Shown: positions 2,009 to 62,931 of the stretch, piece by piece
Layout: each line of letters starts with the position of its first letter
Numbering within the stretch: the first letter of the stretch is position 1
From: Parcubacteria group bacterium Gr01-1014_3
GTDB taxonomy: Bacteria > Patescibacteriota > Minisyncoccia > UBA6257 > WO2-44-18
Length of the DNA: 64,000 bases
NCBI GenBank assembly: GCA_007376445.1
Contig: VMGF01000002.1
Span: 167,928 to 231,927, forward strand
Direction of reading: 5' to 3'
The notes under the pieces: model-generated
What the model was told of the DNA's origin: nothing
Databases searched by the model: none
Seen by the model: only the letters and a program-made list of their open reading frames with translations
Translations under genes and position numbers: made by a program

Positions 2009-3163
2009 ATGAAATTCGATTTCTTGGTTCTGGGAGCAACGGGAATGCAAGGCAGAATCGTCACGGCCGATTTGATTGGAAAGGGTTACAAAGTTTTTGG
2101 TTCTAGCCGGCACGCGAAGGGGTTAGAAAAAGTTCAAGAACAGCATCCGACTTTTCAGTTTGAGGAGTTGGATCTATCCGATAGTAAAAAGATCGCGGAA
2201 TTAATCTCCAGAGTTAATCCGGGAGTCGTCATCAACTGCGCCGAAGGAGATTGGAACTTCGAAGTTTATCAGGCGGCTCTTGAAGCGGGAGCGAATGTGA
2301 TTGATCTTGGTTCCGATATTCCGACCACTCAAAAGCAGATGGCCCTTGATCAAGCGTTCAAAGAAAAAGGACTGACCGCTATTACCGGCTGTGGTTCCAC
2401 GCCGGGAGTAAACGACGTGATGCTCAGATACGCGTCAGGCTTTTTAGACACCATTGATACGATCGAGGCGGGTTTTGCCTGGAATTCCGAGCCTCAAACA
2501 TTCGTCGTGCCATTTTCGATGGAAAGCATCTTCGAGGAGTTCACTGATCCGGCGCAGGTCTTTGAAAACGGCGAGTGGGGCGTGAAAGTGCCTATGGAAA
2601 CCGTTCAAGACAAAGAATTCCGTGAAGTAGGAAATCAAAAAGTCTTTCTAGTCCGGCATCCGGAAACTTACACCTTTTATTACTACTTCCAGGATCTCGG
2701 GGTGAAAACAGTTCGCTTCTACGCCGGATTCCCCGATCATTCCTTTAATGTCATACAAGATTATATAAAACGGGGGCTAACTAAAGATCGGAAGTTTTGT
2801 TTGGATGGAGAAAATTGCGCCCCCCTCACAGCTCTTACTAAAATCCTTCAGGAAAAACACGCTCCGCCGGAAGGATATGAGGAAAAAGAAAATTTGTGGG
2901 TTTCTCTGACCGGCACTAAAAACGGCAGAAAGGAAACGATCTTGATGGAATGCATCGTCCCGACTCTCCCCGACTGGAAGAGCGCCGGTTGCAATATTGA
3001 TACCGGCTTTCCGGCTTCAATCATGGCTCAGATGATCCTAAATAAAGTAGTTGCTGACCGTGGCAGTTTTGCCCCGGCCGGGATTATTCCGCCGGAACCA
3101 TTTTTCGAGGAATTGAAAAAGAGAAGCATGAGAATCTACATGAACGGAGCGCAAATCGTTTAA
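2009..3163 (+). CDS. saccharopine dehydrogenase-like NAD(P)-binding oxidoreductase
   Basis: N-terminal LVLGATGMQGRIV Rossmann motif; Sacchrp_dh-like length and architecture. Confidence 0.55.
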   Translation: MKFDFLVLGATGMQGRIVTADLIGKGYKVFGSSRHAKGLEKVQEQHPTFQFEELDLSDSKKIAELISRVNPGVVINCAEGDWNFEVYQAALEAGANVIDLGSDIPTTQKQMALDQAFKEKGLTAITGCGSTPGVNDVMLRYASGFLDTIDTIEAGFAWNSEPQTFVVPFSMESIFEEFTDPAQVFENGEWGVKVPMETVQDKEFREVGNQKVFLVRHPETYTFYYYFQDLGVKTVRFYAGFPDHSFNVIQDYIKRGLTKDRKFCLDGENCAPLTALTKILQEKHAPPEGYEEKENLWVSLTGTKNGRKETILMECIVPTLPDWKSAGCNIDTGFPASIMAQMILNKVVADRGSFAPAGIIPPEPFFEELKKRSMRIYMNGAQIV

Positions 3164-4461
3164 GCGGCTGAATCACCAGCTACATAACCGGTCGTCCAAC
3201 AGAGTTGAAGCGAGTAGCCGCCCGAGGGCCGATCTACATTTAATACGTCGCCAACGAGATAAAGCCATGGGATTAAGCGGGACTGCATTGTTTTGAAATT
3301 CACCTCTTCGAGCGCCACACCCCCGGACGAAACAATCGCTTTATTGGCCCCGAGTAAACCGGAAACATTGAGCGGAACCGCTTTCAGGAGCGCGACTATT
3401 TTCTTTCGAGATTCGGCGCTGACGCTGTGATTGGCCGTCTCCCCGCTGATCTCGGCAATCTCCAAAAGCGCGGACACTAGCGCGGCGGGGATCAGTTTGT
3501 TTAAAACATTTTTCAGCTTTTTATTGCTCTCGCCTATTAAAAGTTCCTGGAGTTTTTTGCGAAGCGAACCAAGATCGGTCTTTGGAAAAAGATCGAGCTC
3601 GATAACTACCTCGCCATATTTTAAAAGTTCGCCAATCTCTTTGCTTATATTCAAGACCGTCGGGCCGCTGATGCCAAAGTGCGTAAAGAGAAGTTTGCCA
3701 TTCACGCTGATCTGTTTTTGCCGGTTTTGTCCTCCAGAGGCGGATCCGCCCCAGGCGGAAAAAATCGTGAGCTTGATGTCTTTTAACGTAACGCCGCCAA
3801 GTTTTTTGGCCCACGCGTCTGAAAGTGCAATCGGAACAAGAGCGAAATCGTTGTCGACGATTGTATGCCCTAGTTTTTTAAGCCATTTGAATCCTTCGCC
3901 GGTCGAGCCGGTCTCCGGACGGGATGTGCCGCCAGTAGCCAGAACGCACGACTTGGTGATAATTTCCCCGCCCACATCGCTAAGCGAAGTGTGGCGGGCA
4001 GGTTTTCCGCCTTTTACTTTGATAATAATATTTTTTGTATCCGGATCGACTGAAAGCCCGGCAACCTCAACGCCCGTCTGAACTTTCACGCCACCCTCTT
4101 TCATATACTCAACCAGCACATCCCAGACGGACTTCGCGCTATCCGATACCGGGAAAATTCTACCCTCATTTTCTTCTTTGGTGGCCATGCCTCTTTTGTT
4201 AAAAAAATCTAGCGCTTCTGTAACTCCAAACTGGGAAAAAGCGGAAAAAAGAAACTGGTCATTGCCTTTGTATTTTTCAACCATCAGACGAACCGCCGGT
4301 TTATTGTTGGTCACATTACACCGCCCACCGCCGGTAATAAGCAGTTTTTTGCCCAAACCAGGATTCTTTTCAAGTAATAAAACAGAACGGCCTTTGCTTG
4401 CCGCTCTACCAGCCGCCATCATCCCAGCCGGCCCTCCGCCGATAACTACGACGTCATACAT
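3160..4461 (-). CDS. HI0933/YhiN-family FAD flavoprotein
   Basis: VVVIGGGPAGMMAA and GGGRCNVTN motifs. Carries the in-frame palindromic element (FSAWGGSASGGQ). Confidence 0.7.
   Translation of the reverse strand: MYDVVVIGGGPAGMMAAGRAASKGRSVLLLEKNPGLGKKLLITGGGRCNVTNNKPAVRLMVEKYKGNDQFLFSAFSQFGVTEALDFFNKRGMATKEENEGRIFPVSDSAKSVWDVLVEYMKEGGVKVQTGVEVAGLSVDPDTKNIIIKVKGGKPARHTSLSDVGGEIITKSCVLATGGTSRPETGSTGEGFKWLKKLGHTIVDNDFALVPIALSDAWAKKLGGVTLKDIKLTIFSAWGGSASGGQNRQKQISVNGKLLFTHFGISGPTVLNISKEIGELLKYGEVVIELDLFPKTDLGSLRKKLQELLIGESNKKLKNVLNKLIPAALVSALLEIAEISGETANHSVSAESRKKIVALLKAVPLNVSGLLGANKAIVSSGGVALEEVNFKTMQSRLIPWLYLVGDVLNVDRPSGGYSLQLCWTTGYVAGDSAA
3730..3762 (-). repeat. in-frame double-hairpin palindromic mini-element, copy 1
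   Basis: Plus strand TCCTCCagaGGCGGATCCGCCccaGGCGGAAAA; sense strand of host gene TTT TCC GCC tgg GGC GGA TCC GCC tct GGA GGA. Confidence 0.8.
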
Positions 4462-9781: not shown

Positions 9782-9868
9782 CGTTTGAGATTAACACGCG
9801 AGGAATTCATTGGGCAAATTCCGCTTAATACGATTAGGCCTATTTGGGTCTAAATGCCGTAGATTGAT

Positions 9869-9936
9869 CCCGTTAGAAACCGCGCCCGCGCTTAGCGCGC
9901 CCCGGAGGGGCCTATGGGCGGGCTGTTTCTAACGGG
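9869..9936. repeat. CCCGTTAGA inverted-repeat element, copy 2 (68 bp, GC-rich nested-hairpin core)
   Basis: CCCGTTAGAAAC ... GTTTCTAACGGG with internal GCCCGC/GCGGGC and GCCCCggaGGGGC stems. Confidence 0.75.
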
Positions 9937-9937
9937 A

Positions 9938-9966
9938 TTGACATATATAATAGAATATGGTATAAT
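9938..9966 (+). promoter_or_regulatory. consensus sigma70 promoter fused to the element (TTGACA-17-TATAAT)
   Basis: TTGACA at 9938-9943, exact 17-nt spacer, TATAAT at 9961-9966. ATG of the next gene at 9976. Confidence 0.6.
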
Positions 9967-11177: not shown

Positions 11178-11281
11178 CTTGATTCCTTTCTTAGAACACC
11201 TCCAATTTAGCAAAGGATTTTAAGTCGCGCAAGTTTGAAATTTTTAAACTTTGAGTTATAATACAAAGCAGTTCTTAATAT

Positions 11282-11572
11282 TCCCCGGTAGCTCAGCGGT
11301 AGAGCAGCTCGCTGTGAAATAGCGCAGCCTCCTAGAGTAATCTAGGTTGAATAACGAGGTGAACTCGGTGAAACCCCTTTGGGGCAATACCGAGCCAAGC
11401 CCAGATGAAAATCTGGGAAGGTGTAGAGACTATCCCGAAAGGGAGTACTCCAGCGAAAGCTGGCGGAAGCGCCTCGATCCGACAAAGGTCGGATATGATA
11501 TAGTCCACCCCTATTAGTAATAGTAGGACAAGTGTAACGAGAAGGTCCCAGGTTCGATCCCTGGCCGGGGAG
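11282..11572 (+). tRNA. tRNA interrupted by a roughly 219-nt group I intron in the anticodon loop; mature anticodon most likely GUU (Asn), alternatively UGU (Thr)
   Basis: 5' half TCCCCGG-TA-GCTC-AGCGGTA-GAGC-A-GCTCG-CUGU; 3' half UAA-CGAGA-AGGTC-CCAGG-TTCGATC-CCTGG-CCGGGGA-G. P1 pairs exon GCUGU with intron GCAGC through a U.G wobble. Confidence 0.7.
11316..11534 (+). ncRNA. group I intron (self-splicing type) within the tRNA
   Basis: Conserved core elements GACUAUC (R, about 11428) and GAUAUAGUCC (S, about 11498); terminal G; 5' exon ends in U. Confidence 0.65.
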
Positions 11573-12021: not shown

Positions 12022-12465
12022 TTGAAACTGCCGAACCAATATTGGACCAAGAAAGATATTCAGGATGTTAAGAAGGCGAAAAGTTTTGGCGATCTTTCGG
12101 TGGTAGCAATGCGGGTGGTCGCGCGGATGCCCCAGCCGGTTGGCGAGGTTTGCGGACCGATCACCTCCGGCGGACTCGGCTCACGAGAAAAGAATCTAAA
12201 AGCCTTTAATCAGGCAATCGATAAGCTACGTAAAGCCGGCAACTGCATTTTTGATCAGATTCCGTTTGAGGAAAAGCTTTACGAGTTCACGCAGGCTAAG
12301 TGGTATAAAGGCGGACTTCAGCTCTTGAGTGAGTTTTATCTTCCGATCTTCAAGTCAGGACTGATCGATACTTTCTACTTTATGTCGCTCTGGCACACCT
12401 CAATGGGAGCCAAGTGGGAGCATGATCAGGCCAAGGCGCTTGGGATCAGGATAGTTTATTTATAA
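12022..12465 (+). CDS. hypothetical protein (TTG start, AAGGAG RBS)
   Basis: RBS AAGGAG 8 nt upstream of TTG. CGPITSGG motif; possibly a nucleoside-transferase-like fold. Confidence 0.4.
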   Translation: MKLPNQYWTKKDIQDVKKAKSFGDLSVVAMRVVARMPQPVGEVCGPITSGGLGSREKNLKAFNQAIDKLRKAGNCIFDQIPFEEKLYEFTQAKWYKGGLQLLSEFYLPIFKSGLIDTFYFMSLWHTSMGAKWEHDQAKALGIRIVYL

Positions 12466-12470
12466 AAAAG

Positions 12471-12505
12471 TCCCCTTCCGCCAGTTGGCGGAGGGGATTT
12501 TTATT
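12471..12505. terminator. bidirectional rho-independent terminator (TCCCCT-TCCGCCagttGGCGGA-GGGGA + T-run)
   Basis: Hairpin flanked by A-run and T-run between convergent genes. Confidence 0.7.
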
Positions 12506-12814: not shown

Positions 12815-12882
12815 CCTCCCTAAATCAAATCCCTGATTTGATCGGGCGACCTAACTCACCACATAGTGAGTTAGGTTTAGCC
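12815..12882 (-). promoter_or_regulatory. conserved structured 5' leader (family 3, copy A)
   Basis: mRNA sense: GGCUAAACC-[ACCUAACUCAC..GUGAGUUAGGU hairpin]-CGCCCG-[AUCAAAU cagggAUUUGAU hairpin]-UUAGGGAGG-N6-AUG. Confidence 0.6.
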
Positions 12883-30771: not shown

Positions 30772-31000
30772 AAGTTAAAAAGTGATTTTAAGTATAAACA
30801 ATTAAATAAAACTTTCAACCCCACGCCCCCCCCACAGGAACAAGGCTTTCGCTCCGCTCAAGCTCGAACACTTCCGCCGCACCCCGACCCCCGCTTAAGA
30901 CACCTTCGGTTTCTTACCCTCGTCCGCCATCCGCCAACTGGCGGAGGCGGACTCGGATCTTCCTGGTACGGGGTGCGGCTGGTTCGATTCCATGTAGCAA

Positions 31001-31486: not shown

Positions 31487-32590
31487 CTAAATCTCTTCCG
31501 CTAGCTCCTCCAACAGTTTCTTCGCCTTCGCGCTTAATTTTTTCGGAGTTTTCACGTGCCACTCTATATAAAGATCACCGCGGCCAAAACCGCCAAAGCG
31601 CTTCATGCCGCGTCCGGACACCCGAAGTTGTTCTTTCAAATTAAAATCCGCCGGAATTTCCACGTGAATCTTCTCGCCGGAAATATCCTGAACCTCGATC
31701 TTTTTTCCAAGCACCGCGTCCACGAAGCCAACTTCTTTTTTCAGCAACAAATCATCGCCATGGCGTTCAAAGTTCTTATCGGCTTTCACTTTAATACGAA
31801 TATATAAGTCGCCCTGCTCGGCGCCGCGCTCTCCCACTTCACCAGCCTTGGTAATCTTCATCATCTGGCCATCACCGACACCCGGAGTTATATCGATCTC
31901 AAGAGTCCTCTCGCCTATCGCGCGGCCAACGCCTTTGCAGGTTGAGCAGGTCTTGTTTGGGATCTGGCCGGTGCCGCTGCACTTGGCGCAGGCCCGGACT
32001 TGGGAAAAACTGCCGAAGAATGTATTCCGCGCTTCACGGATCTCTCCGCGGCCGTTGCAGGTGTCACAGGTAGTCGTGCCTTCCTTTGGGAAATGACCGA
32101 CGCCAGCGCATTCTTTACAAGCTATAAAAGTTTTAATGTGAACCGCCCGCTTCACTCCGGTAAACGCCTCTTCAAGAGTAATTTGTTGAACCACTTCAAG
32201 ATCCGCGCCCCGCTGATAAGTCTTTCGTTTCTTAACTCCCAAGCCCTCGAAGATCGCGTCAAAAACTTCGCTCATATTACCCATATCTTCAAAATTGGAC
32301 GGATCAAAGCCCGCGCCGAAATCAAAACCACCGAAAGGATTGCCAAATGGGCCGTCTCCTCCCGAGGAGGATCCGCCTCCGGCGGAAAAAACCCGGCCAA
32401 ACTGGTCGTACTGCGACCGTTTGTCTTTGTTGGAGAGCACCTGATAAGCCTCATTGATCTCTTTAAATTTCTGCTCATCGCCGTGAGATTTATCCGGATG
32501 ATACTGATGCGCCAGCTTGCGATAAGCTTTTTTAATATCTTCCTCAGTCGCTTCTTTCTCCACGCCTAAAATTTTGTAGTAGTCTTTCAT
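31487..32590 (-). CDS. dnaJ: molecular chaperone DnaJ
   Basis: J domain with HPD. G/F region. Four CxxCxGxG repeats. Carries the in-frame palindromic element in the G/F region. Confidence 0.9.
   Translation of the reverse strand: MKDYYKILGVEKEATEEDIKKAYRKLAHQYHPDKSHGDEQKFKEINEAYQVLSNKDKRSQYDQFGRVFSAGGGSSSGGDGPFGNPFGGFDFGAGFDPSNFEDMGNMSEVFDAIFEGLGVKKRKTYQRGADLEVVQQITLEEAFTGVKRAVHIKTFIACKECAGVGHFPKEGTTTCDTCNGRGEIREARNTFFGSFSQVRACAKCSGTGQIPNKTCSTCKGVGRAIGERTLEIDITPGVGDGQMMKITKAGEVGERGAEQGDLYIRIKVKADKNFERHGDDLLLKKEVGFVDAVLGKKIEVQDISGEKIHVEIPADFNLKEQLRVSGRGMKRFGGFGRGDLYIEWHVKTPKKLSAKAKKLLEELAEEI
32357..32391 (-). repeat. in-frame double-hairpin palindromic mini-element, copy 2
   Basis: TCCTCCcgaGGAGGATCCGCCtccGGCGGAAAAAA; sense strand encodes FSAGGGSSSGGD. 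Confidence 0.8.
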
Positions 32591-33666: not shown

Positions 33667-35541
33667 TTAAGCGGCCTTCGGGGGTTCTTGCTTACTATTC
33701 ATCGCCGACCCGATTTTTTGGATCTCAGCTGACAACTCCGAAACAGCCGCTTTAATTGCCTCGCTGTCCTGGCCATCTTTGACCGATTTTACTTTTTCGA
33801 TCTTGGCGGTGATAGCGTCTTGAATTTCTTTGGGAACTTTATCGCCCGCGTCTTTCAAGGATTTTTCGGAAACATAAACCAGCTGCTCGGCGTTGTTTTT
33901 TGACTCCACTAAATCTTTTTTCTTGCGGTCTTCATCGGCGTGCTTAGCCGCTTCGTTTTTTAATCGCTCGATCTCTTCCTTGGATAAATTCGTGGAAGCC
34001 TCGATGCGAACAGATTGCGTGCGGCCGGATGCTTTGTCTTTGGCAGAGACGCTCAAAATGCCGTTGGCATCAATATCAAAAGTAACTTCAACTTGCGGCG
34101 CGCCGCGCGGAGACGGAGGAATACCATCCAGAATAAATCTGGCTAAAGTTTTATTGTCGGAAGCCATCGAACGCTCACCCTGAAGAATATGGATCTCTAC
34201 TGAAGTTTGATTATCAGCCGCGGTTGAGAATACCTGACTCTTGGCAGTCGGAATGGTGGTATTTTTTTCGATCAGTTTGGTCATTACGCTTCCTAGGGTT
34301 TCAATACCAACCGAAAGCGGGGTAACATCGAGCAAAAGCACGTCTTTAACTTCACCTTCTGGTTTACGGCCTTCTTCTTTAGCCGACAGAATTTCTGCCT
34401 GAACCGCGGCGCCAATCGCCACTACTTCGTCCGGATTCACGCCGAGATGCGGCTCTTTGCCGAACATTTTTTTCACCGCTTCCTGTATCGCCGGCATACG
34501 AGTCTGCCCGCCAACCATAACGATCTCATTGATGTCAGAAATTTTAAATCCGGCGTCTTTCACCGTCTTTTGGGTAAGCTCGATCGAACGATCCAGCATA
34601 TCCTGAACCAAAGATTCCAATTTGGCGCGAGTCAGCTTCATCGCGAAGTGTTTCGGACCGGAAGCATCGGAGCTGATGTAAGGAATGCTGATCTCCGTCT
34701 CCAAGGACGCGGAAAGTTCATGTTTGGCGCGCTCAGCCGCCTCTTTCAGGCGCTGAACCGCGAGCATATCCTTACTGACATCAATACCCTCCTGTTTTTT
34801 GTACTCTGCGACTAAAAATTCATTTATCCGTTTATCAAAATCATCACCACCCAGGTGCGTATCGCCGCCAGTCGCGCGGACTTCGATAGTATTGTCGGCG
34901 ATCTCCAGTACGGATACATCAAAGGTACCGCCACCAAAATCATAAACGACGATCTTTTCATTCTTCGCTTTGTTTAAACCATAGGCCAACGCCGCCGCGG
35001 TCGGCTCGTTGATAATGCGATGTACTTTAAATCCAGCGATCTCACCGGCGTTTTTGGTGGCCTGACGCTGGCTGTCGTCAAAATATGCCGGCACAGTGAT
35101 CACGGCGCCATCGATCTTTTCACCAAGACGCGCCTCGGCGTCAGCTTTGAGTTTGGCAAGAACCATGGCGGAAATTTCTTCCGGCTTGTACCAGGTAGCC
35201 TGCCCTGAGACCCCCGAAGGGTCACCCATTTTCACATCCACGCCGCCGGTCGCGGATTCTTTGATGTCGTATGGCAGCCATTTCTTATCGCTCTGCACCT
35301 CCGCGTCGGAAAATTTGCGGCCGATCAGCCGCTTTACGGAATAAATAGTGTTCTTCGGATTTACGCCGCCCTGGCGTTTAGCCAAAAGCCCGGCAACACG
35401 TTCGTTGTTTTTAGTGATCGCCACGATCGAAGGCGTGGTGCGGTTGCCTTCGGAATTTTCTAAAATTCTCGGCGAACCAGCGTCCACTACCGCCACCGCG
35501 GAATTAGTTGTACCAAGATCAATACCAATTATTTTACTCAT
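33667..35541 (-). CDS. dnaK: molecular chaperone DnaK (Hsp70)
   Basis: [18 protein letters not shown] and VGGQTRMP Hsp70 signatures. Confidence 0.95.
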
Positions 35542-35659
35542 GTGAAATTTATAATTTACAATTTTTAATTTTCATTCAATTTTCAATTTGTTAATTTTCA
35601 AGTTGTTTGTTTATTGGTACTTGTAAATTGATTGGAAATTGTTAATTGATAATTGAAAA

Positions 35660-36109
35660 TTATTTATTCTGACCTTTGCTTAATTTAATTCTTACTGGCT
35701 TTATAACCTTACCGTTCAGTATATACCCTTGTTCCAATACCTCGGCGATCGATCCTGGCGGATGATCGGATTCCATCTCGCCTACCGCTTCGTGAAAGGA
35801 TGGATCAAATGTTCCGCCAGCTTCCACTATCATCGCTTCCACTCCCTGACGCTTAAGCGTATCGGCGATCTGAGACCTTATCATATATATACCCTTATCC
35901 ACCGGTCCTTGTTTCTCCAGCGCCGCGATAGCCAGGTCAAAGTTATCCAATGAACCAACCAGGTCCTTAATAATAGAGATGTTGGCGAATTTAGCGAACT
36001 CTTCAAAACGTTTTTGCTCATCTTTCTGATAATTGATCAGATCAGCCTTGGCGCGCTTCCAGCCGTTGAGATATTCCTCTGTTAAATTTTCCGTCTTTTT
36101 ATCATCCAT
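35660..36109 (-). CDS. grpE: nucleotide exchange factor GrpE
   Basis: GrpE-like coiled-coil plus C-terminal beta domain (GTFDPSFHEAV). Confidence 0.85.
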   Translation of the reverse strand: MDDKKTENLTEEYLNGWKRAKADLINYQKDEQKRFEEFAKFANISIIKDLVGSLDNFDLAIAALEKQGPVDKGIYMIRSQIADTLKRQGVEAMIVEAGGTFDPSFHEAVGEMESDHPPGSIAEVLEQGYILNGKVIKPVRIKLSKGQNK

Positions 36110-37121: not shown

Positions 37122-37248
37122 CCGCTTCGCGGCAAATTCCAAATGACAAATTTCAATTATCAAATAAATTCCGGGTCGTCCAGAATTTCGATCATTGATA
37201 TTTGGAGCTTATTTGTAATTTGGCGCTTGGAATTTGGAATTTTTAATT

Positions 37249-38712
37249 ATGCAAATCTTTAATTCTCTCTCTCAAACAAAAGAAAAACTCGAAGACGTGA
37301 TAACCGGCAAAAAAGTCCGGCTCTTCGTCTGCGGTCCCACGGTCTATCACGACGCGCACATCGGCAACGCCCGCACCTATATTTCTTTTGATATTATCGC
37401 CCGCTATCTCCGCTCGGCCGGTTTCAGAGTTTATTATCTCCAGAATATCACCGATATCGACGATAAGATCATCCGCCGCTCGGCCGCGGAAAACACTACC
37501 CCGCAAGCGCTCGCCAAAAAATATGAAAAGATCTATCACGAAGATGAGAAAAAGCTCGGAATCATCTCGGTCAATAAATACGCCCGGGCGACTTCCTATA
37601 TAAAGCAGATCGTGAAGCAGGTGCAGACCCTGATCGACAAAGGCCACGCCTACAAGATTGACGACGGATATTACTTCGACCTCTCCACTTTTCCGGATTA
37701 CGGCAAACTCGCCCGCCGGACGGTACTTCAGGCGGAAGATTCCACTTCGCGTATTGATGAGAATCCGAATAAAAAAAATCGGGGTGATTTCGTGCTGTGG
37801 AAATTTTCTTCCGCCCAAGGCGGATCCTCCTCCGGAGGAAAAGAAGGCGCCGCCCCTACCGGGGGCGAGCCTCGCCCTGAGGCAGGGCGGGAGCCATCTT
37901 GGAACACCAAGTTAGGCAGTGGACGGCCAGGCTGGCACATCGAAGACACGGCGATCACCGAGTATCAGTTCGGCCCACAGTATGATATTCACGGTGGCGC
38001 GATCGATCTGAAGTTCCCCCATCACGAAGCCGAGATCGCCCAACAGGAGGCCGCCTCCGGCAAAAAACCGATGGTGAAGATCTGGATGCACGCGGGCTTT
38101 TTAAATATCGGCGGAGAGAAGATGTCGAAGAGCTTTGGTGAATTCGTCACGATCCGGGAATTTTTAGAAAAACATTCCGCGCTAGTCTTGCGATTCATGG
38201 TGGCAAGTCACCACTACCGAGCGCCGATGGATTACTCTGAGGCGTTGCTCCGGCAATCCAAAAATACCTTACTCAATCTAATGGGTTTTCTGGGGAAGTT
38301 GGAGATGGCCCGAGGCTCCGCCAAAGCCTTGGCGGCGGAAGAGTTAGTAAAGAAAATGGCGGAGGAATTCCAAGCCGCCATGCAAGACGATTTCAATACG
38401 CCAGAAGCTCTCGCGGCAATATTTTCGCTGATCAATCAGTTCCAAAAATCTGTTTGGGAGCTGGATAAAAAATCAGCCAAGTTGATCACAAAATCCATCG
38501 TCAGCTCGCTTGAAGTCCTAGGGCTAGAGCTTCCGAAGGTCAAAATCCCCTCTCAAATCCAGAAAAAAGTGAAGGAGCGAGAGTTATACAGAGGAAATGC
38601 ACAATTTATCCCAGCAGACACTTTGCGGCAAGAAATAGAAGCGTTAGGATATACAGTAGACGACACACCCCGCGGACCATTAGTATTGCCGCGGGAAATA
38701 ACTAATTCCTAA
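37249..38712 (+). CDS. cysS: cysteine--tRNA ligase
   Basis: HIGN (HIGH), KMSKS and GRPGWHIE motifs. About 27-aa insertion after DFVLWK made of palindromic elements. Confidence 0.85.
   Translation: MQIFNSLSQTKEKLEDVITGKKVRLFVCGPTVYHDAHIGNARTYISFDIIARYLRSAGFRVYYLQNITDIDDKIIRRSAAENTTPQALAKKYEKIYHEDEKKLGIISVNKYARATSYIKQIVKQVQTLIDKGHAYKIDDGYYFDLSTFPDYGKLARRTVLQAEDSTSRIDENPNKKNRGDFVLWKFSSAQGGSSSGGKEGAAPTGGEPRPEAGREPSWNTKLGSGRPGWHIEDTAITEYQFGPQYDIHGGAIDLKFPHHEAEIAQQEAASGKKPMVKIWMHAGFLNIGGEKMSKSFGEFVTIREFLEKHSALVLRFMVASHHYRAPMDYSEALLRQSKNTLLNLMGFLGKLEMARGSAKALAAEELVKKMAEEFQAAMQDDFNTPEALAAIFSLINQFQKSVWELDKKSAKLITKSIVSSLEVLGLELPKVKIPSQIQKKVKERELYRGNAQFIPADTLRQEIEALGYTVDDTPRGPLVLPREITNS
37806..37842 (+). 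repeat. in-frame double-hairpin palindromic mini-element, copy 3 (followed by three more GC hairpins to about 37896)
   Basis: TTT TCT TCC GCC caa GGC GGA TCC TCC tcc GGA GGA AAA encodes FSSAQGGSSSGGK. Confidence 0.8.
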
Positions 38713-38811
38713 ATTGTTGAATTTTAAATTTTTAATTATAAATTTGAAATTAATTTAAAATTTCAAAATTTAAAATTGAAAATTACGCAAAGTTAGGTTA
38801 ATTAGAAATTT

Positions 38812-40839: not shown

Positions 40840-40907
40840 GGCTAAACCAAATTCGTTATGTGGCGAATTTGGTCGCCCGATCAAATCAGGGATTTGATTT
40901 AGGGAGG
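40840..40907 (+). promoter_or_regulatory. conserved structured 5' leader (family 3, copy C)
   Basis: GGCUAAACC-[AAAUUCG..CGAAUUU hairpin]-GGUCGCCCG-[AUCAAAUcagggAUUUGAU]-UUAGGGAGG-N5-AUG. Confidence 0.6.
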
Positions 40908-40912
40908 TGGCG

Positions 40913-43639: not shown

Positions 43640-44497
43640 TCACTTTTCAAACTTGATCGCGCTAATAGCAAGGAACATTGGGATCTCTTTTCGGATACGA
43701 TTCTCCGCCTTGGCTCGCGGTCCTGGTTCGCTCTCTTTGTGCGATATCCACTCTTCCAGGTTCTCAACTAGAAAACCCGCTTTAGCGAGCGAACCAAAAT
43801 ACGCCGAAAGCGGCCGGTGGAAAGACCAGGTAATTTCCTTTGGTTTATCGCCCGGATGCATCTGGATCGGCACTTTCATCTCCGACATATAACTGTCGAT
43901 GCGGCGATACTGAGATTTCCGCTCTTCGTCCCAGCCCCAGCCGCTTTGGCGTGGAATGCGGAAAACCGGATGATTCATCACGATCACTAACTTACCGCCG
44001 AATTTCAAGATTCGATGAGCTTCACGGAAAACACCATCCATTTCGGCGATATTTTGAACCGTAAGAATCTTTACCACAGCATCAAAGTAATTAGTCTTGA
44101 AGAGGCTTAACTTATCGGCTGGAGCCACTTCATAGCGGATCTTTTTATCCGAACGCTTCCGAGCAATATTGATCAGCTCCGTCGAGACATCAACTCCGAT
44201 AACTTCGGCGCCTTTTTTGAAAAATTCGCGCGCGAAATATCCCTGTCCGCAAGCAAGGTCAAGAATATACTGCCCTTTCCGGAGATCGAGCAATCGCAAA
44301 ACACCAGGTAAAATCACCTGGCTCTGATAGGTACCTTCCCTGCCCTCCATCATCGTGTCGTACCATTTGGCAACTTTGCCCCAGGAGGTTGGTTTATCCC
44401 ACCTAGCTTTCGCTTGGCGAGGCTCGCCCAAAGGTTGGGCGGCTTCTCTTCGCGGACCGCCCCGGCTCGGGCCTGGTCTACCTTCCATTTTTCGCAT
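43640..44497 (-). CDS. class I SAM-dependent methyltransferase with Arg-rich N-terminal extension
   Basis: ILDLACGQGYF motif I, post-I acidic residue, motif II; about 60-aa basic N-terminal tail. Confidence 0.7.
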   Translation of the reverse strand: MRKMEGRPGPSRGGPRREAAQPLGEPRQAKARWDKPTSWGKVAKWYDTMMEGREGTYQSQVILPGVLRLLDLRKGQYILDLACGQGYFAREFFKKGAEVIGVDVSTELINIARKRSDKKIRYEVAPADKLSLFKTNYFDAVVKILTVQNIAEMDGVFREAHRILKFGGKLVIVMNHPVFRIPRQSGWGWDEERKSQYRRIDSYMSEMKVPIQMHPGDKPKEITWSFHRPLSAYFGSLAKAGFLVENLEEWISHKESEPGPRAKAENRIRKEIPMFLAISAIKFEK

Positions 44498-50600: not shown

Positions 50601-50701
50601 AAATTAACTAATAACGAATTTGTTACGAATAAGCAAATATACGAATATGTGCCGATTCGTTTATTCGTATATTAGTTCAGATTAGTTATTCGTTAATTTG
50701 G
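50601..50701. repeat. TTCGTATA/CGAATA-word repeat block (family 7, copy 2)
   Basis: GATTCGTTTATTCGTATATTAGTTCAGATTAGTTATTCGTTAATT. Ends at the truB stop. Confidence 0.6.
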
Positions 50702-51377
50702 TGAAATCCGCCAGAGTTAAAGCTTTCTCTTTTTTTCCTCCGGAGGAGGATCCGCCTCTGGCGGAAAATTGACCTACCCGCGTCCTCTCCAGGCCGGCCA
50801 AATACCCGCCAACTTTTAATTTTTTGCCCAAATCCCGCGCCAATGAACGGATATAAACTCCTGGGCCGGTCACCACCCGCAATTCTAAAAATGGCCACTT
50901 ATATTTCAATAAGGAGATCTTTTTAATGAATGCCGGGCGGGATTTCATCTTAACTTTCTGACCTTTCCTGGCGAGCTTATAAGCTTCTTTGCCGGCGATC
51001 TTGATCGCGCTGAAAATCGGCGGTGTCTGGCGGATATTTCCAACGAATTTTTTCATTGCCACGCGAATCTCTTTCAGCTCCGGTTTCTTGGAAAATTCAA
51101 CCGCGGATTTTTCACCTTCATCATCGTCGGTCGTGCTGTAAAATCCTAGCTTAATCTTGGCTAGATATTCTTTTTCTTTTTTGACGACTTCGCCGAGTTG
51201 TTTTGTGCCAGGACGGCCGATGCCGATCACCAGAACACCGCTGGCCAGCGGATCTAAAGTTCCAGCATGCCCGATCTTGCGGATGCCGGTGATTTTCCGG
51301 AGGCGGTTCAAAAAGCCGTTAGAAGTCGGTCCTTTCGGTTTATACGCGCCATAAATACCTTCAATGGTCTTCTTCAT
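50682..51377 (-). CDS. truB: tRNA pseudouridine(55) synthase
   Basis: GHAGTLDPLASGVL catalytic motif. C-terminal PUA-like region interrupted by the in-frame element. Confidence 0.85.
   Translation of the reverse strand: MKKTIEGIYGAYKPKGPTSNGFLNRLRKITGIRKIGHAGTLDPLASGVLVIGIGRPGTKQLGEVVKKEKEYLAKIKLGFYSTTDDDEGEKSAVEFSKKPELKEIRVAMKKFVGNIRQTPPIFSAIKIAGKEAYKLARKGQKVKMKSRPAFIKKISLLKYKWPFLELRVVTGPGVYIRSLARDLGKKLKVGGYLAGLERTRVGQFSARGGSSSGGKKEKALTLADFTKLTNN
50736..50768 (-). repeat. in-frame double-hairpin palindromic mini-element, copy 4
   Basis: TCCTCCggaGGAGGATCCGCCtctGGCGGAAAA; sense strand encodes FSARGGSSSGGKK. Confidence 0.8.
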
Positions 51378-56082: not shown

Positions 56083-56089
56083 CTAGCCA

Positions 56090-56155
56090 CCTCCCTAAAT
56101 CAAATCCCTGATTTGATCGGGCGACCAACTTGCCACAAGGCAAGTTGGTTTAGCC
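56090..56155 (-). promoter_or_regulatory. conserved structured 5' leader (family 3, copy B)
   Basis: GGCUAAACC-[AACUUGCC uugu GGCAAGUU]-GGUCGCCCG-[AUCAAAUcagggAUUUGAU]-UUAGGGAGG-N7-AUG. Confidence 0.6.
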
Positions 56156-57725: not shown

Positions 57726-57845
57726 ACAACCTCCTTGCCTCCGCCAGTTGGCGGATGGCGGGCGAATACTGTAAAGAAACTTTGAATATATTAATAAAAT
57801 ACACCGATAAAGTCAACCGCTCGATTAATTTCTCATGATATTGAT

Positions 57846-57913
57846 CCCGTTAGAAGTCGCGCCCGCGCTTTGCGCGCCCCAAAGGGGCCTATGGGCGGGC
57901 TACTTCTAACGGG
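57846..57913. repeat. CCCGTTAGA inverted-repeat element, copy 4 (68 bp, about 90% identical to copy 2 with compensatory stem changes)
   Basis: CCCGTTAGAAGT ... ACTTCTAACGGG; inner GCCCCaaaGGGGC hairpin. Confidence 0.75.
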
Positions 57914-57914
57914 A

Positions 57915-57943
57915 TTGACAATAGGCTTAATGTATGCTATAAT
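57915..57943 (+). promoter_or_regulatory. consensus sigma70 promoter fused to the element (TTGACA-17-TATAAT)
   Basis: Same offset from the element as at 9938. AAGGAGA RBS and ATG at 57993. Confidence 0.6.

Positions 57944-60879: not shown

Positions 60880-62931
<2,052 letters not shown>

Follow-up and report, generated by a model that had tools for sequence, protein, structure and literature searches.

Two in-frame palindromic repeats probably account for an enlarged loop in the cysteinyl-tRNA synthetase of Parcubacteria group bacterium Gr01-1014_3

The cysS gene of Parcubacteria group bacterium Gr01-1014_3 encodes a cysteinyl-tRNA synthetase (CysRS) in which one loop is 24 residues longer than in its closest homologues. 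We studied this gene within a window of 64,000 nucleotides, the whole stretch of DNA that was analysed (GenBank assembly GCA_007376445.1, contig VMGF01000002.1, positions 167,928 to 231,927 of the forward strand; positions given below are those of the window). The extra residues probably stem from two short repeat elements, element 1 and element 2, each a GC-rich double hairpin present in frame, which we consider to be proliferating palindromic repeats that are translated and tolerated in permissive loops in Patescibacteria and several other uncultivated phyla. To this explanation as a whole we give a probability of about 70%. The DNA of the elements is more conserved than the genes that host them, and their stems are kept complementary by covariation. 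Coding copies lie overwhelmingly in one phase, in which element 1 reads as a Gly/Ser-rich peptide and element 2 as a peptide of Pro, Gly and charged residues.

Results

The open reading frame (ORF) of cysS opens with a TTG codon at 37234, and the 487-residue NCBI protein implies a start at 37249. The CysRS of the window and its HI0933-like flavoprotein are each 100% identical to NCBI proteins of the Gr01-1014_3 metagenome-assembled genome (MAG). The gene has 29 residues, FSSAQGGSSSGGKEGAAPTGGEPRPEAGR, between DFVLWK and EPSW, where the modal loop among the 119 best homologues has 5 (FSKPG, FSKEG or FKKEN). Every homologue at 64-65% identity has a 5-residue loop, with the exception of P0015, and the loop of the Coxiella CysRS structure 3tqo is also 5 residues long. 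Orthologues read WKFSKEG-EPSW, and in the CysRS locus L001 the codons TTT TCC AAA GAA GGC stand immediately 5' of element 2, so the KEG spacer between the two elements is native. As FS is native as well, and the loop of the homologues has 5 residues, the net gain is 24 residues (72 nt). The original prediction, made from the letters of the window, had proposed an insertion of about 27 residues at this place. The insertion is real but somewhat smaller, and the closest homologues, instead of carrying a loop of equal length without palindromic DNA, have 5 residues.

The same prediction had divided the insert into a mini-element and three further GC hairpins. The mini-element, our element 1, does open the insert and has three further copies in the window (Table 1). 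The base pairing of the remainder is also present, but it forms one 42-nt unit of two hairpins, element 2, and the proposed hairpin GGGCGAG-c-CTCGCCC is merely the junction between the 3' arm of its hairpin 1 and the 5' arm of its hairpin 2. The GC content over the insert is 66-70%, compared to a window mean of 47%, and the 106-nt region around it folds at -56.6 kcal/mol (z = -3.4 versus shuffles).

Table 1. Host gene and in-frame hairpin elements in the window
Feature	Position	Strand	Description
cysS, cysteinyl-tRNA synthetase	37234..38712	+	Pfam tRNA-synt_1e (8e-101) and DALR_2
Element 1, cysS	37810..37839	+	30 nt, two 6-bp hairpins, TCCGCC-caa-GGCGGA then TCCTCC-tcc-GGAGGA; peptide SAQGGSSSGG
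Native codons AAA GAA GGC (KEG), between elements 1 and 2	37840..37848	+	orthologues read WKFSKEG-EPSW
Element 2, cysS	37849..37890	+	42 nt, two hairpins with related stems, GCCGCCCC-tacc-GGGGGCGAG then cCTCGCCCTG-agg-CAGGGCGG; peptide AAPTGGEPRPEAGR
Element 1, HI0933-like flavoprotein gene (3160..4461)	3730..3759	-	peptide SAWGGSASGG
Element 1, dnaJ (31487..32590), Gly/Phe-rich linker	32357..32386	-	peptide SAGGGSSSGG
Element 1, truB (50682..51377)	50736..50765	-	peptide SARGGSSSGG
Element 2, degenerate copy in the N-terminal extension of a methyltransferase-like ORF (43640..44497)	44402..44443	-	in frame, AAQPLGEPRQAKAR
Third in-frame hairpin element, flavoprotein gene	3967..4002	-	36 nt, PARHTSLSDVGG

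The cysS 30-mer has three matches in the window at three mismatches or fewer, versus 0.00 expected in shuffles; the fourth window copy came from repeat finding. All four copies lie within ORFs, in one phase and in one orientation relative to the gene, and each has TTT or TTY as its 5' flank. They read (F)-S-A-x-G-G-S-S/A-S-G-G, and the general peptide of the element is SAxGGSSSGG. The fold of the element 1 DNA has a z of -3.5, with none of 200 shuffles equally stable. Read along the host gene, each of the four copies has the hairpin with the GCC stem ahead of the other. The TCC stem of that other hairpin is clean in three copies, and in the flavoprotein copy it is a mismatched hybrid (TCCGCC..GGAGGA). 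The element 1 stem is also found in intergenic single hairpins TCCGCC-AGTT-GGCGGA at 12460-12500, 30920-30953 and 57737-57765. The first of these is arranged as an A-run, the hairpin and a T-run, which is the layout of a bidirectional intrinsic terminator.

Relatives without element 1 show what was gained. None of the 120 TruB homologues carries the element, among them three that are 87, 84 and 82% identical. The truB site reads CAA TTT[30 nt]AAA AAA in the window, CAA TTT AAA AAA in the relative at 82% (L246) and CAA TTC AAA AAA in the one at 87% (L245). In the flavoprotein gene, ATT TTT[30 nt]CAA AAC in the window corresponds to ATT TTC CAA AAT in a relative that is 90% identical (L247). At both sites the gain is exactly 30 nt at TTY^AAA or TTY^CAA, with no target-site duplication. 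Other flavoprotein genes have the site filled. In L249 (75% identical) the loop bases differ, and in L248 (242-1642, protein P0244, 82% identical) the rare TGG loop of the window copy is shared. The L248 copy has more hairpins nested inside element 1, giving an insert of 29 residues, and is a clear example of serial accretion.

Element 1 is the member of a large family. A scan with a degenerate pattern over one genome per species gave at least 120 genome loci, where by our own rough estimate about 0.07 random matches are expected in the whole genome collection. Among the matches listed, all loci are in MAGs; about half belong to Patescibacteria of many classes, and the other hosts include Omnitrophota, Kiritimatiellae, Lentisphaerae, Ignavibacteria, Elusimicrobia, Planctomycetales and Chloroflexota, among others. 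Viral contigs gave only two matches, in an unclear context. Copies in unrelated genes and genomes agree at 25-30 of 30 nt, loop-closing bases included. For the phase count we used 131 distinct hits, 127 in fetched loci plus the four window copies. Open frames of at least 150 codons contain 89 of them, and 79 of these 89 are in phase 0 (Ser-Ala-x-Gly-Gly); the 42 hits without a long frame are spread evenly over the phases (14/14/14). The stems covary, with TCCTCC paired to GGAGGA 14 times versus 1.4 expected (Fisher 1e-15). The flanks are T-rich 5' and A-rich 3', consistent with the empty sites TTY^AAA and TTY^CAA. In the 79 coding copies, T occupies positions -3 to -1 in 58, 74 and 51% of cases, a figure to which codon use or selection may contribute.

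Intergenic copies of the two elements sit in mosaics with other hairpin modules. In a Kiritimatiellae MAG (L007, 4569-4752 and 6390-6572) the double hairpin and a GTCATTCCGAGCG-type hairpin module are both parts of an intergenic repeat unit of 185 nt. We considered whether these two copies, 1.8 kb apart, are the ends of an insertion sequence (IS), and rejected this as both lie within the repeat unit. In an Elusimicrobia MAG (L008, 1400-1429) element 1 is nested within a module coding for VIAS|SEAKQSH. These two cases suggest a common pool of hairpin modules across phyla.

Element 2 is likewise a family, 36-48 nt long, with at least 120 metagenome loci, mostly from groundwater. The half of the cysS insert that it forms is not exceptional in its fold (z = -1.9, with 11 of 200 shuffles as stable), and we accept it as a real unit because of its family membership and not its fold energy. 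In long ORFs, 51 of 77 hits use the AAPxGGEPRPxxxGRE frame. N1:N7, which the search pattern leaves free, form Watson-Crick pairs in 93% of cases, with CG, AT, TA and GC pairs all occurring, and the second stem varies in length but keeps its complementarity. The element stands at the identical codon boundary in the CysRS genes of L001 (P0017; 38 of 42 nt identical) and L002 (P0015). The four differences from L001 are all non-synonymous. Two of the four compensate each other in the second stem, where CCTG..CAGG has become CTTG..CAAG. Element 2 is 90% identical in DNA between the window and L001, compared to 64% for the rest of cysS, and the codons of identical residues are also identical in DNA in 10 of 10 cases inside the element and in 51% outside.

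In several orthologous CysRS (P0015, P0017 and L147) the cysS site is occupied by element 2 without element 1, and element 1 is absent from all 119 listed CysRS homologues. Only Gr01-1014_3 has element 1 in CysRS, next to element 2. Element 2 occurs in CysRS in both orientations, as in L147 at the cysS site and in L175 antisense, a few residues downstream. In a neighbour-joining tree of CysRS the carriers (P0001, which is the CysRS of Gr01-1014_3, and P0015, P0017, P0049, L147 and L175) are scattered, each beside a sister with a short loop. Judged from this tree, either the site would have been hit repeatedly or an old insertion would have been precisely lost many times. A single ancestral insertion is disfavoured by the scatter and would require that precise loss is frequent. 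The native CysRS site GGC GAG CC (GGCGAGCC) equals the 8-nt centre of element 2, and this microhomology, together with the native G/E boundary, may guide the insertion.

Outside CysRS, element 2 is present in three genes for translation initiation factor 2 (IF-2; L132, L142 and L146), all at a single shared site (..K/AAPxGGEPRPxxGR/EAGGITQ). Further hosts resemble threonyl-, alanyl- and isoleucyl/valyl-tRNA synthetases and fructose-bisphosphate aldolase, as judged from flanking peptide motifs only. The original prediction had described an accretion into an essential aminoacyl-tRNA synthetase and proposed looking at the other synthetase genes. As cysS is the sole such gene among the 35 ORFs scanned in the window, this comparison covers related metagenome loci. 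Synthetases are among the apparent hosts, but the elements are not specific to them: within the window they are also in DnaJ, TruB, the flavoprotein and the methyltransferase-like protein, and elsewhere in IF-2 and many others.

The flavoprotein gene demonstrates that several such elements can occupy one gene. Of 120 homologues, just three have its third element, PARHTSLSDVGG, namely P0241, P0242 and another sequence. Among relatives with fetched DNA it is shared by L247 alone, the same relative that lacks element 1, and there it is identical at 36 of 36 nt, versus 84% for the rest of the gene. Among four relatives of about 90% identity, the presence and absence patterns of these two elements contradict each other. 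They therefore require a minimum of one precise loss, a gain that occurred repeatedly, or recombination.

The loop that received the insert in CysRS seems well suited to tolerate it. An AlphaFold2 model from 105 aligned sequences has a mean predicted local distance difference test score (pLDDT) of 91.9 and a predicted TM-score of 0.91, and in Foldseek comparisons with solved structures its target-normalised TM-score is 0.87 to 1u0b and 0.90 to 8qhp. Residues 187-217 are modelled as coil, with pLDDT below 50 at 191-204, so the insert is predicted to be a disordered surface loop. Its place in the connective-polypeptide region is between two strands, and some 15 residues further on follows the conserved GRPGWHIE motif, which carries a zinc ligand in E. 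coli CysRS. The element 1 copy of the flavoprotein aligns to a turn of 2i0z. Other Parcubacteria hold unrelated inserts of 10-35 residues in the same CysRS loop, which makes it a permissive site. The segment between WK and EPSW is expanded in about 40% of Parcubacteria CysRS, by several insert families. Other recurrent inserts there (P0044-P0120) are TDAD/NAD...KK.MKIIDG and HANSAP...NAKAPMRI. One CysRS gene (L250, 1001-2473) has three CGCGGA direct repeats in the loop, and another (L251, 1001-2452) has a TCGCTTCGCTCG hairpin module that is also found in intergenic mosaics.

Discussion

How would such repeats have entered an essential gene? We propose that a trans-acting machinery copies them as DNA, probably via single-stranded hairpin intermediates. 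Copies that land in genes would be transcribed and translated together with the host protein, and selection would keep only those in a harmless phase and a permissive surface loop. Insertions that break a gene, or that would be read in the basic (RRRRIRLRR) or the proline-rich and acidic (PPEADPP) phase, would be purged. For the insert of cysS, translation into the peptides FSSAQGGSSSGGK and GAAPTGGEPRPEAGR is suggested by the phase bias and the intact ORFs, and the product may simply be a disordered surface loop of CysRS without a new function. The insert was gained in more than one step, as several CysRS genes carry element 2 alone and only Gr01-1014_3 adds element 1. Element 2 would have come first, or would be recurrent at this site, and element 1 may have followed nine bases upstream, at TTTTCT^AAA. 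The serial accretion of palindromes that had been predicted therefore holds as a multi-step gain into a tolerant loop, but it involved two insertions from two repeat families and not an element plus three separate hairpins.

An alternative is that the hairpins are selected for a function in RNA or DNA, for example in pausing of the ribosome or RNA polymerase that aids co-translational folding, in stability or processing of the mRNA, or as a palindrome bound by a protein, with the peptide as a by-product. The covarying stems, the conservation of the DNA beyond coding needs, the folding of the insert region well below its shuffles and the uniform orientation relative to the gene in the window all agree with this. 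The covariation is equally expected, however, when the copying mechanism needs hairpins, and a local function does not easily explain identical sequences in unrelated genes, at unrelated positions, in intergenic mosaics and in many phyla. Close relatives manage without the element. The best Rfam score on the insert is 23 bits, versus a gathering score of 40, and on ten loci with intergenic copies Rfam gave nothing above threshold; in the rest of the window only tRNAs and a group I intron scored above it. There is also no sense-strand terminator signal in cysS. We tried to read the element 1 hairpins as terminators, but on both strands a T-run precedes and an A-run follows them, the reverse of the required layout. 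Altogether we think a selected RNA or DNA function improbable, although it is the alternative that fares best.

The elements could also behave as uptake signals, spread by molecular drive through preferential uptake and homologous replacement of alleles and not by transposition. In Haemophilus and Neisseria, uptake sequences favour certain reading frames and are found in inverted pairs, and bacteria of the candidate phyla radiation (CPR) are thought to rely on DNA uptake. Gain that is seamless, without target duplication, would fit, as would the reading-frame preference within genes and the phylogenetically incompatible presence and absence among close relatives, which recombination would give. 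Known uptake sequences arise by point mutation, however, and not by insertion of 30-48 nt, and they are specific to a lineage, whereas element 1 is shared across phyla. Four copies in 64 kb is a low density. Moreover, copies at the same site in orthologues that are 60-75% identical are in genes too diverged for homologous replacement. This makes uptake quite unlikely as the driving force.

About equally unlikely is that the insert is an adaptive extension of CysRS that was recruited from repeat DNA and serves the connective-polypeptide region, for example as a flexible linker or as a new surface for interactions. That the loop is expanded in so many Parcubacteria, by different insert families, and that the reading frame is kept, could be understood in this way. 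But the peptides are generic for the repeat families and are found as well in DnaJ, TruB, the flavoprotein, IF-2 and others, the closest orthologues do without the insert, and the insert is predicted to be disordered. The substitutions in element 2 between the window and L001, all non-synonymous, preserve the DNA stem rather than the peptide.

Three further explanations have very little in their favour. Template switching can generate palindromes, and L248, with its extra hairpins nested at one site, might be taken as a case in which hairpins arose locally in a GC-rich loop, through template switching or slippage during replication, separately in each gene and without copying from other loci. 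This is already contradicted by the family data: copies in unrelated genes and genomes agree in 25-30 of their 30 nt, also at the bases that close the loops, window shuffles gave no chance match to the cysS 30-mer, and the at least 120 loci far exceed the roughly 0.07 expected at random. No more probable is that the elements remain untranslated, either because ribosomes bypass them, as in T4 gene 60 and the mitochondrial 'byp' elements, or because they are removed from the mRNA. Short GC-rich hairpins within genes of a moderately AT-rich genome look superficially like byps, but the coding copies are multiples of three without a stop codon, a skipped element would have no need for 79 of 89 copies in one phase, and there are no matching take-off and landing codons, with TTT before and AAA or CAA after. 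An assembly or sequencing artefact, which the restriction of all listed matches to MAGs or metagenome contigs and a GGATCC core reminiscent of cloning linkers might suggest, is the least credible of all, as assemblies from many independent projects carry the elements with the ORF always preserved, a phase bias, covarying stems and clean empty sites in relatives. Convergent evolution of Gly/Ser linkers was rejected in view of the identical codon choice between copies, the palindromic unit and the intergenic occurrence.

Several points weigh against proliferating, translated repeats as the explanation. Among the 35 ORFs scanned in the window, 64 kb of genome, there is no transposase, RAYT and TnpA included, and a phmmer search with E. 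coli RayT against all ORFs of the 1.79 Mb of fetched loci gave no relative, which is a weak test. A simple vertical spread of selfish DNA does not explain a near-identical 30-nt element in different phyla. There is no explanation either for all four window copies having one orientation, as both orientations encode nearly the same peptide. Element 2 recurs at an identical codon boundary in a number of CysRS and IF-2 lineages, which requires a site preference, microhomology (GGCGAGCC), or an ancient insertion followed by many precise losses. Finally, translation of the insert is deduced from phase bias and intact ORFs and not observed, and the placement of the CysRS insert in a surface loop comes from predicted structure alone.

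Among known systems, the elements work most like the Rickettsia palindromic elements (RPEs), in-frame palindromic repeats of about 100-150 bp in Rickettsia housekeeping genes (Ogata et al. 2000, as summarised in PMC10969869). In both cases palindromic families are found in frame in unrelated housekeeping genes as well as between genes, adding a conserved peptide and leaving the host protein intact, and RPEs too have been read as selfish DNA tolerated at permissive positions. By this analogy RPEs would be the closest relatives in behaviour, but our elements differ in size and host, having 30-48 nt and occurring in Patescibacteria and several other phyla, whereas RPEs are confined to Rickettsia. 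They also consist of two consecutive hairpins with the same stem. In RPEs the added peptide is expected at the protein surface and away from the active site; what is seen here is the low-pLDDT coil predicted for the CysRS insert and the turn of 2i0z to which the flavoprotein copy aligns. The comparison with RPEs covers size, palindromy, location and host.

In structure, the elements resemble the repetitive extragenic palindromic (REP) sequences and bacterial interspersed mosaic elements (BIMEs) served by REP-associated tyrosine transposases (RAYTs), which are hairpins of 20-40 nt, often paired and in mosaics with other modules. With these and with IS200/IS605 elements they share the seamless gain without target duplication and the apparently precise loss, a pattern that single-strand HUH transposition produces. 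Precise absence in relatives would fit seamless excision of an IS200/IS605-derived, palindrome-associated (PATE-like) element, with recombination as an alternative cause of the loss. Elements of that kind insert 3' of a fixed tetra- or pentanucleotide and have a cognate Y1 (HUH) transposase that recognises their hairpins; what is seen here is TTT or TTY on the 5' side of the four window copies, which may also reflect codon use or selection. REPs, however, are extragenic by definition, whereas all four window copies of element 1 and 79 of 131 family hits are in frame within genes. REPs also have a conserved GTAG at the hairpin foot; our elements lack GTAG and have flanks that are T-rich 5' and A-rich 3'. 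The mobile GC clusters and byps of yeast mitochondria are likewise short GC-rich hairpins that invade the genes of an AT-richer genome, but ribosomes skip byps, which are free of frame constraints, and our elements keep frame and phase. Uptake signals (USS and DUS) have about 10-12 nt, are very abundant and lineage-specific and originate by point mutation, in contrast to units of 30-48 nt that are gained by insertion, are present at 4 per 64 kb and cross phyla.

Miniature inverted-repeat transposable elements, or MITEs, such as Correia, ERIC and BOX are also short, non-autonomous repeats with inverted symmetry that may form in-frame fusions (PMC10969869). MITEs usually have 50-500 bp, are AT-rich and are flanked by target-site duplications (PMC10969869), whereas our elements are GC-rich, have 30-48 nt and show no target duplication. 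The PARCEL repeats have a dyad-symmetric coding sequence that gives a similar peptide from both strands, and a punctate spread over distant taxa, as here. Their amphipathic unit has 25 residues and is repeated in tandem within surface proteins of uncharacterised function (PMC2996958), and our elements are single inserts of 10-16 residues in housekeeping enzymes.

Full-text literature searches did not find these elements described in CPR bacteria, and the peptide string GGSASGG gave only synthetic linkers and unrelated contexts. Very short double-hairpin repeats that are common to uncultivated phyla and lengthen the loops of essential proteins are apparently undescribed. A bolder reading, which we put forward only tentatively and believe less likely to be right than wrong, is that they make up one class of mobile hairpins that spans phyla, is non-autonomous and, at 30-48 nt, ultra-short, and that is inserted seamlessly at preferred sites and can be lost precisely. 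The preferred sites would be the junction of a T-run and an A-run for element 1 and G/E codon boundaries with microhomology for element 2. In the communities of groundwater and sediment, such hairpins could be mobilised in trans by an unrecognised enzyme acting on single-stranded DNA, or could spread through a drive based on recombination. They might then generally cause loops to grow in the essential proteins of Patescibacteria, Omnitrophota and other uncultivated bacteria, a process that has so far gone undescribed.

If our explanation is true, the streamlined CPR genomes are colonised by selfish palindromic DNA even within essential genes. Insertion of repeats, and not gradual evolution, could then explain much of the variation in loop length in CPR proteins, for example in the roughly 40% of Parcubacteria CysRS with an expanded loop. 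The elements would confound protein alignments, phylogenomic markers and gene calling, and they would also yield presence/absence markers at the strain level. The seamless, site-preferring gain of a near-identical 30-nt nested palindrome would point to a way of mobilisation, or to a vector of horizontal transfer, as yet undescribed for elements of this size.

Additional observations

The window contains other repeats and RNA features. The group I intron (Rfam RF00028) is matched at full length at 11227-11527 on the plus strand with 57.8 bits. Within this match there is a tRNA-like arm at 11272-11318, where ARAGORN calls no tRNA. An intergenic element of 81 nt is present at 9863-9943 and at 57840-57920, in copies that are 91% identical and located between TTGAT and TTGACA. 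It has a long outer stem, CCCGTTAGAA..TTCTAACGGG, around nested GC hairpins. A conserved leader of 46-68 nt is found at 12815-12882 (-), 40840-40911 (+) and 56086-56131 (-), directly 5' of three small ORFs of about 90-100 residues. It consists of the hairpin AAATCAAATCCCTGATTTGATT followed by GGGAGGTG, and it may be a regulatory element shared by their 5' untranslated regions. Very AT-rich spacers with phased short repeats of the GAAATTG or TAATTT type lie at 35541-35663, 38719-38786, 61295-61328 and 62400-62437. The AT-rich spacers flank the corA-cysS-dnaB block, and the GC content falls to 11-15% around 38.7 kb.

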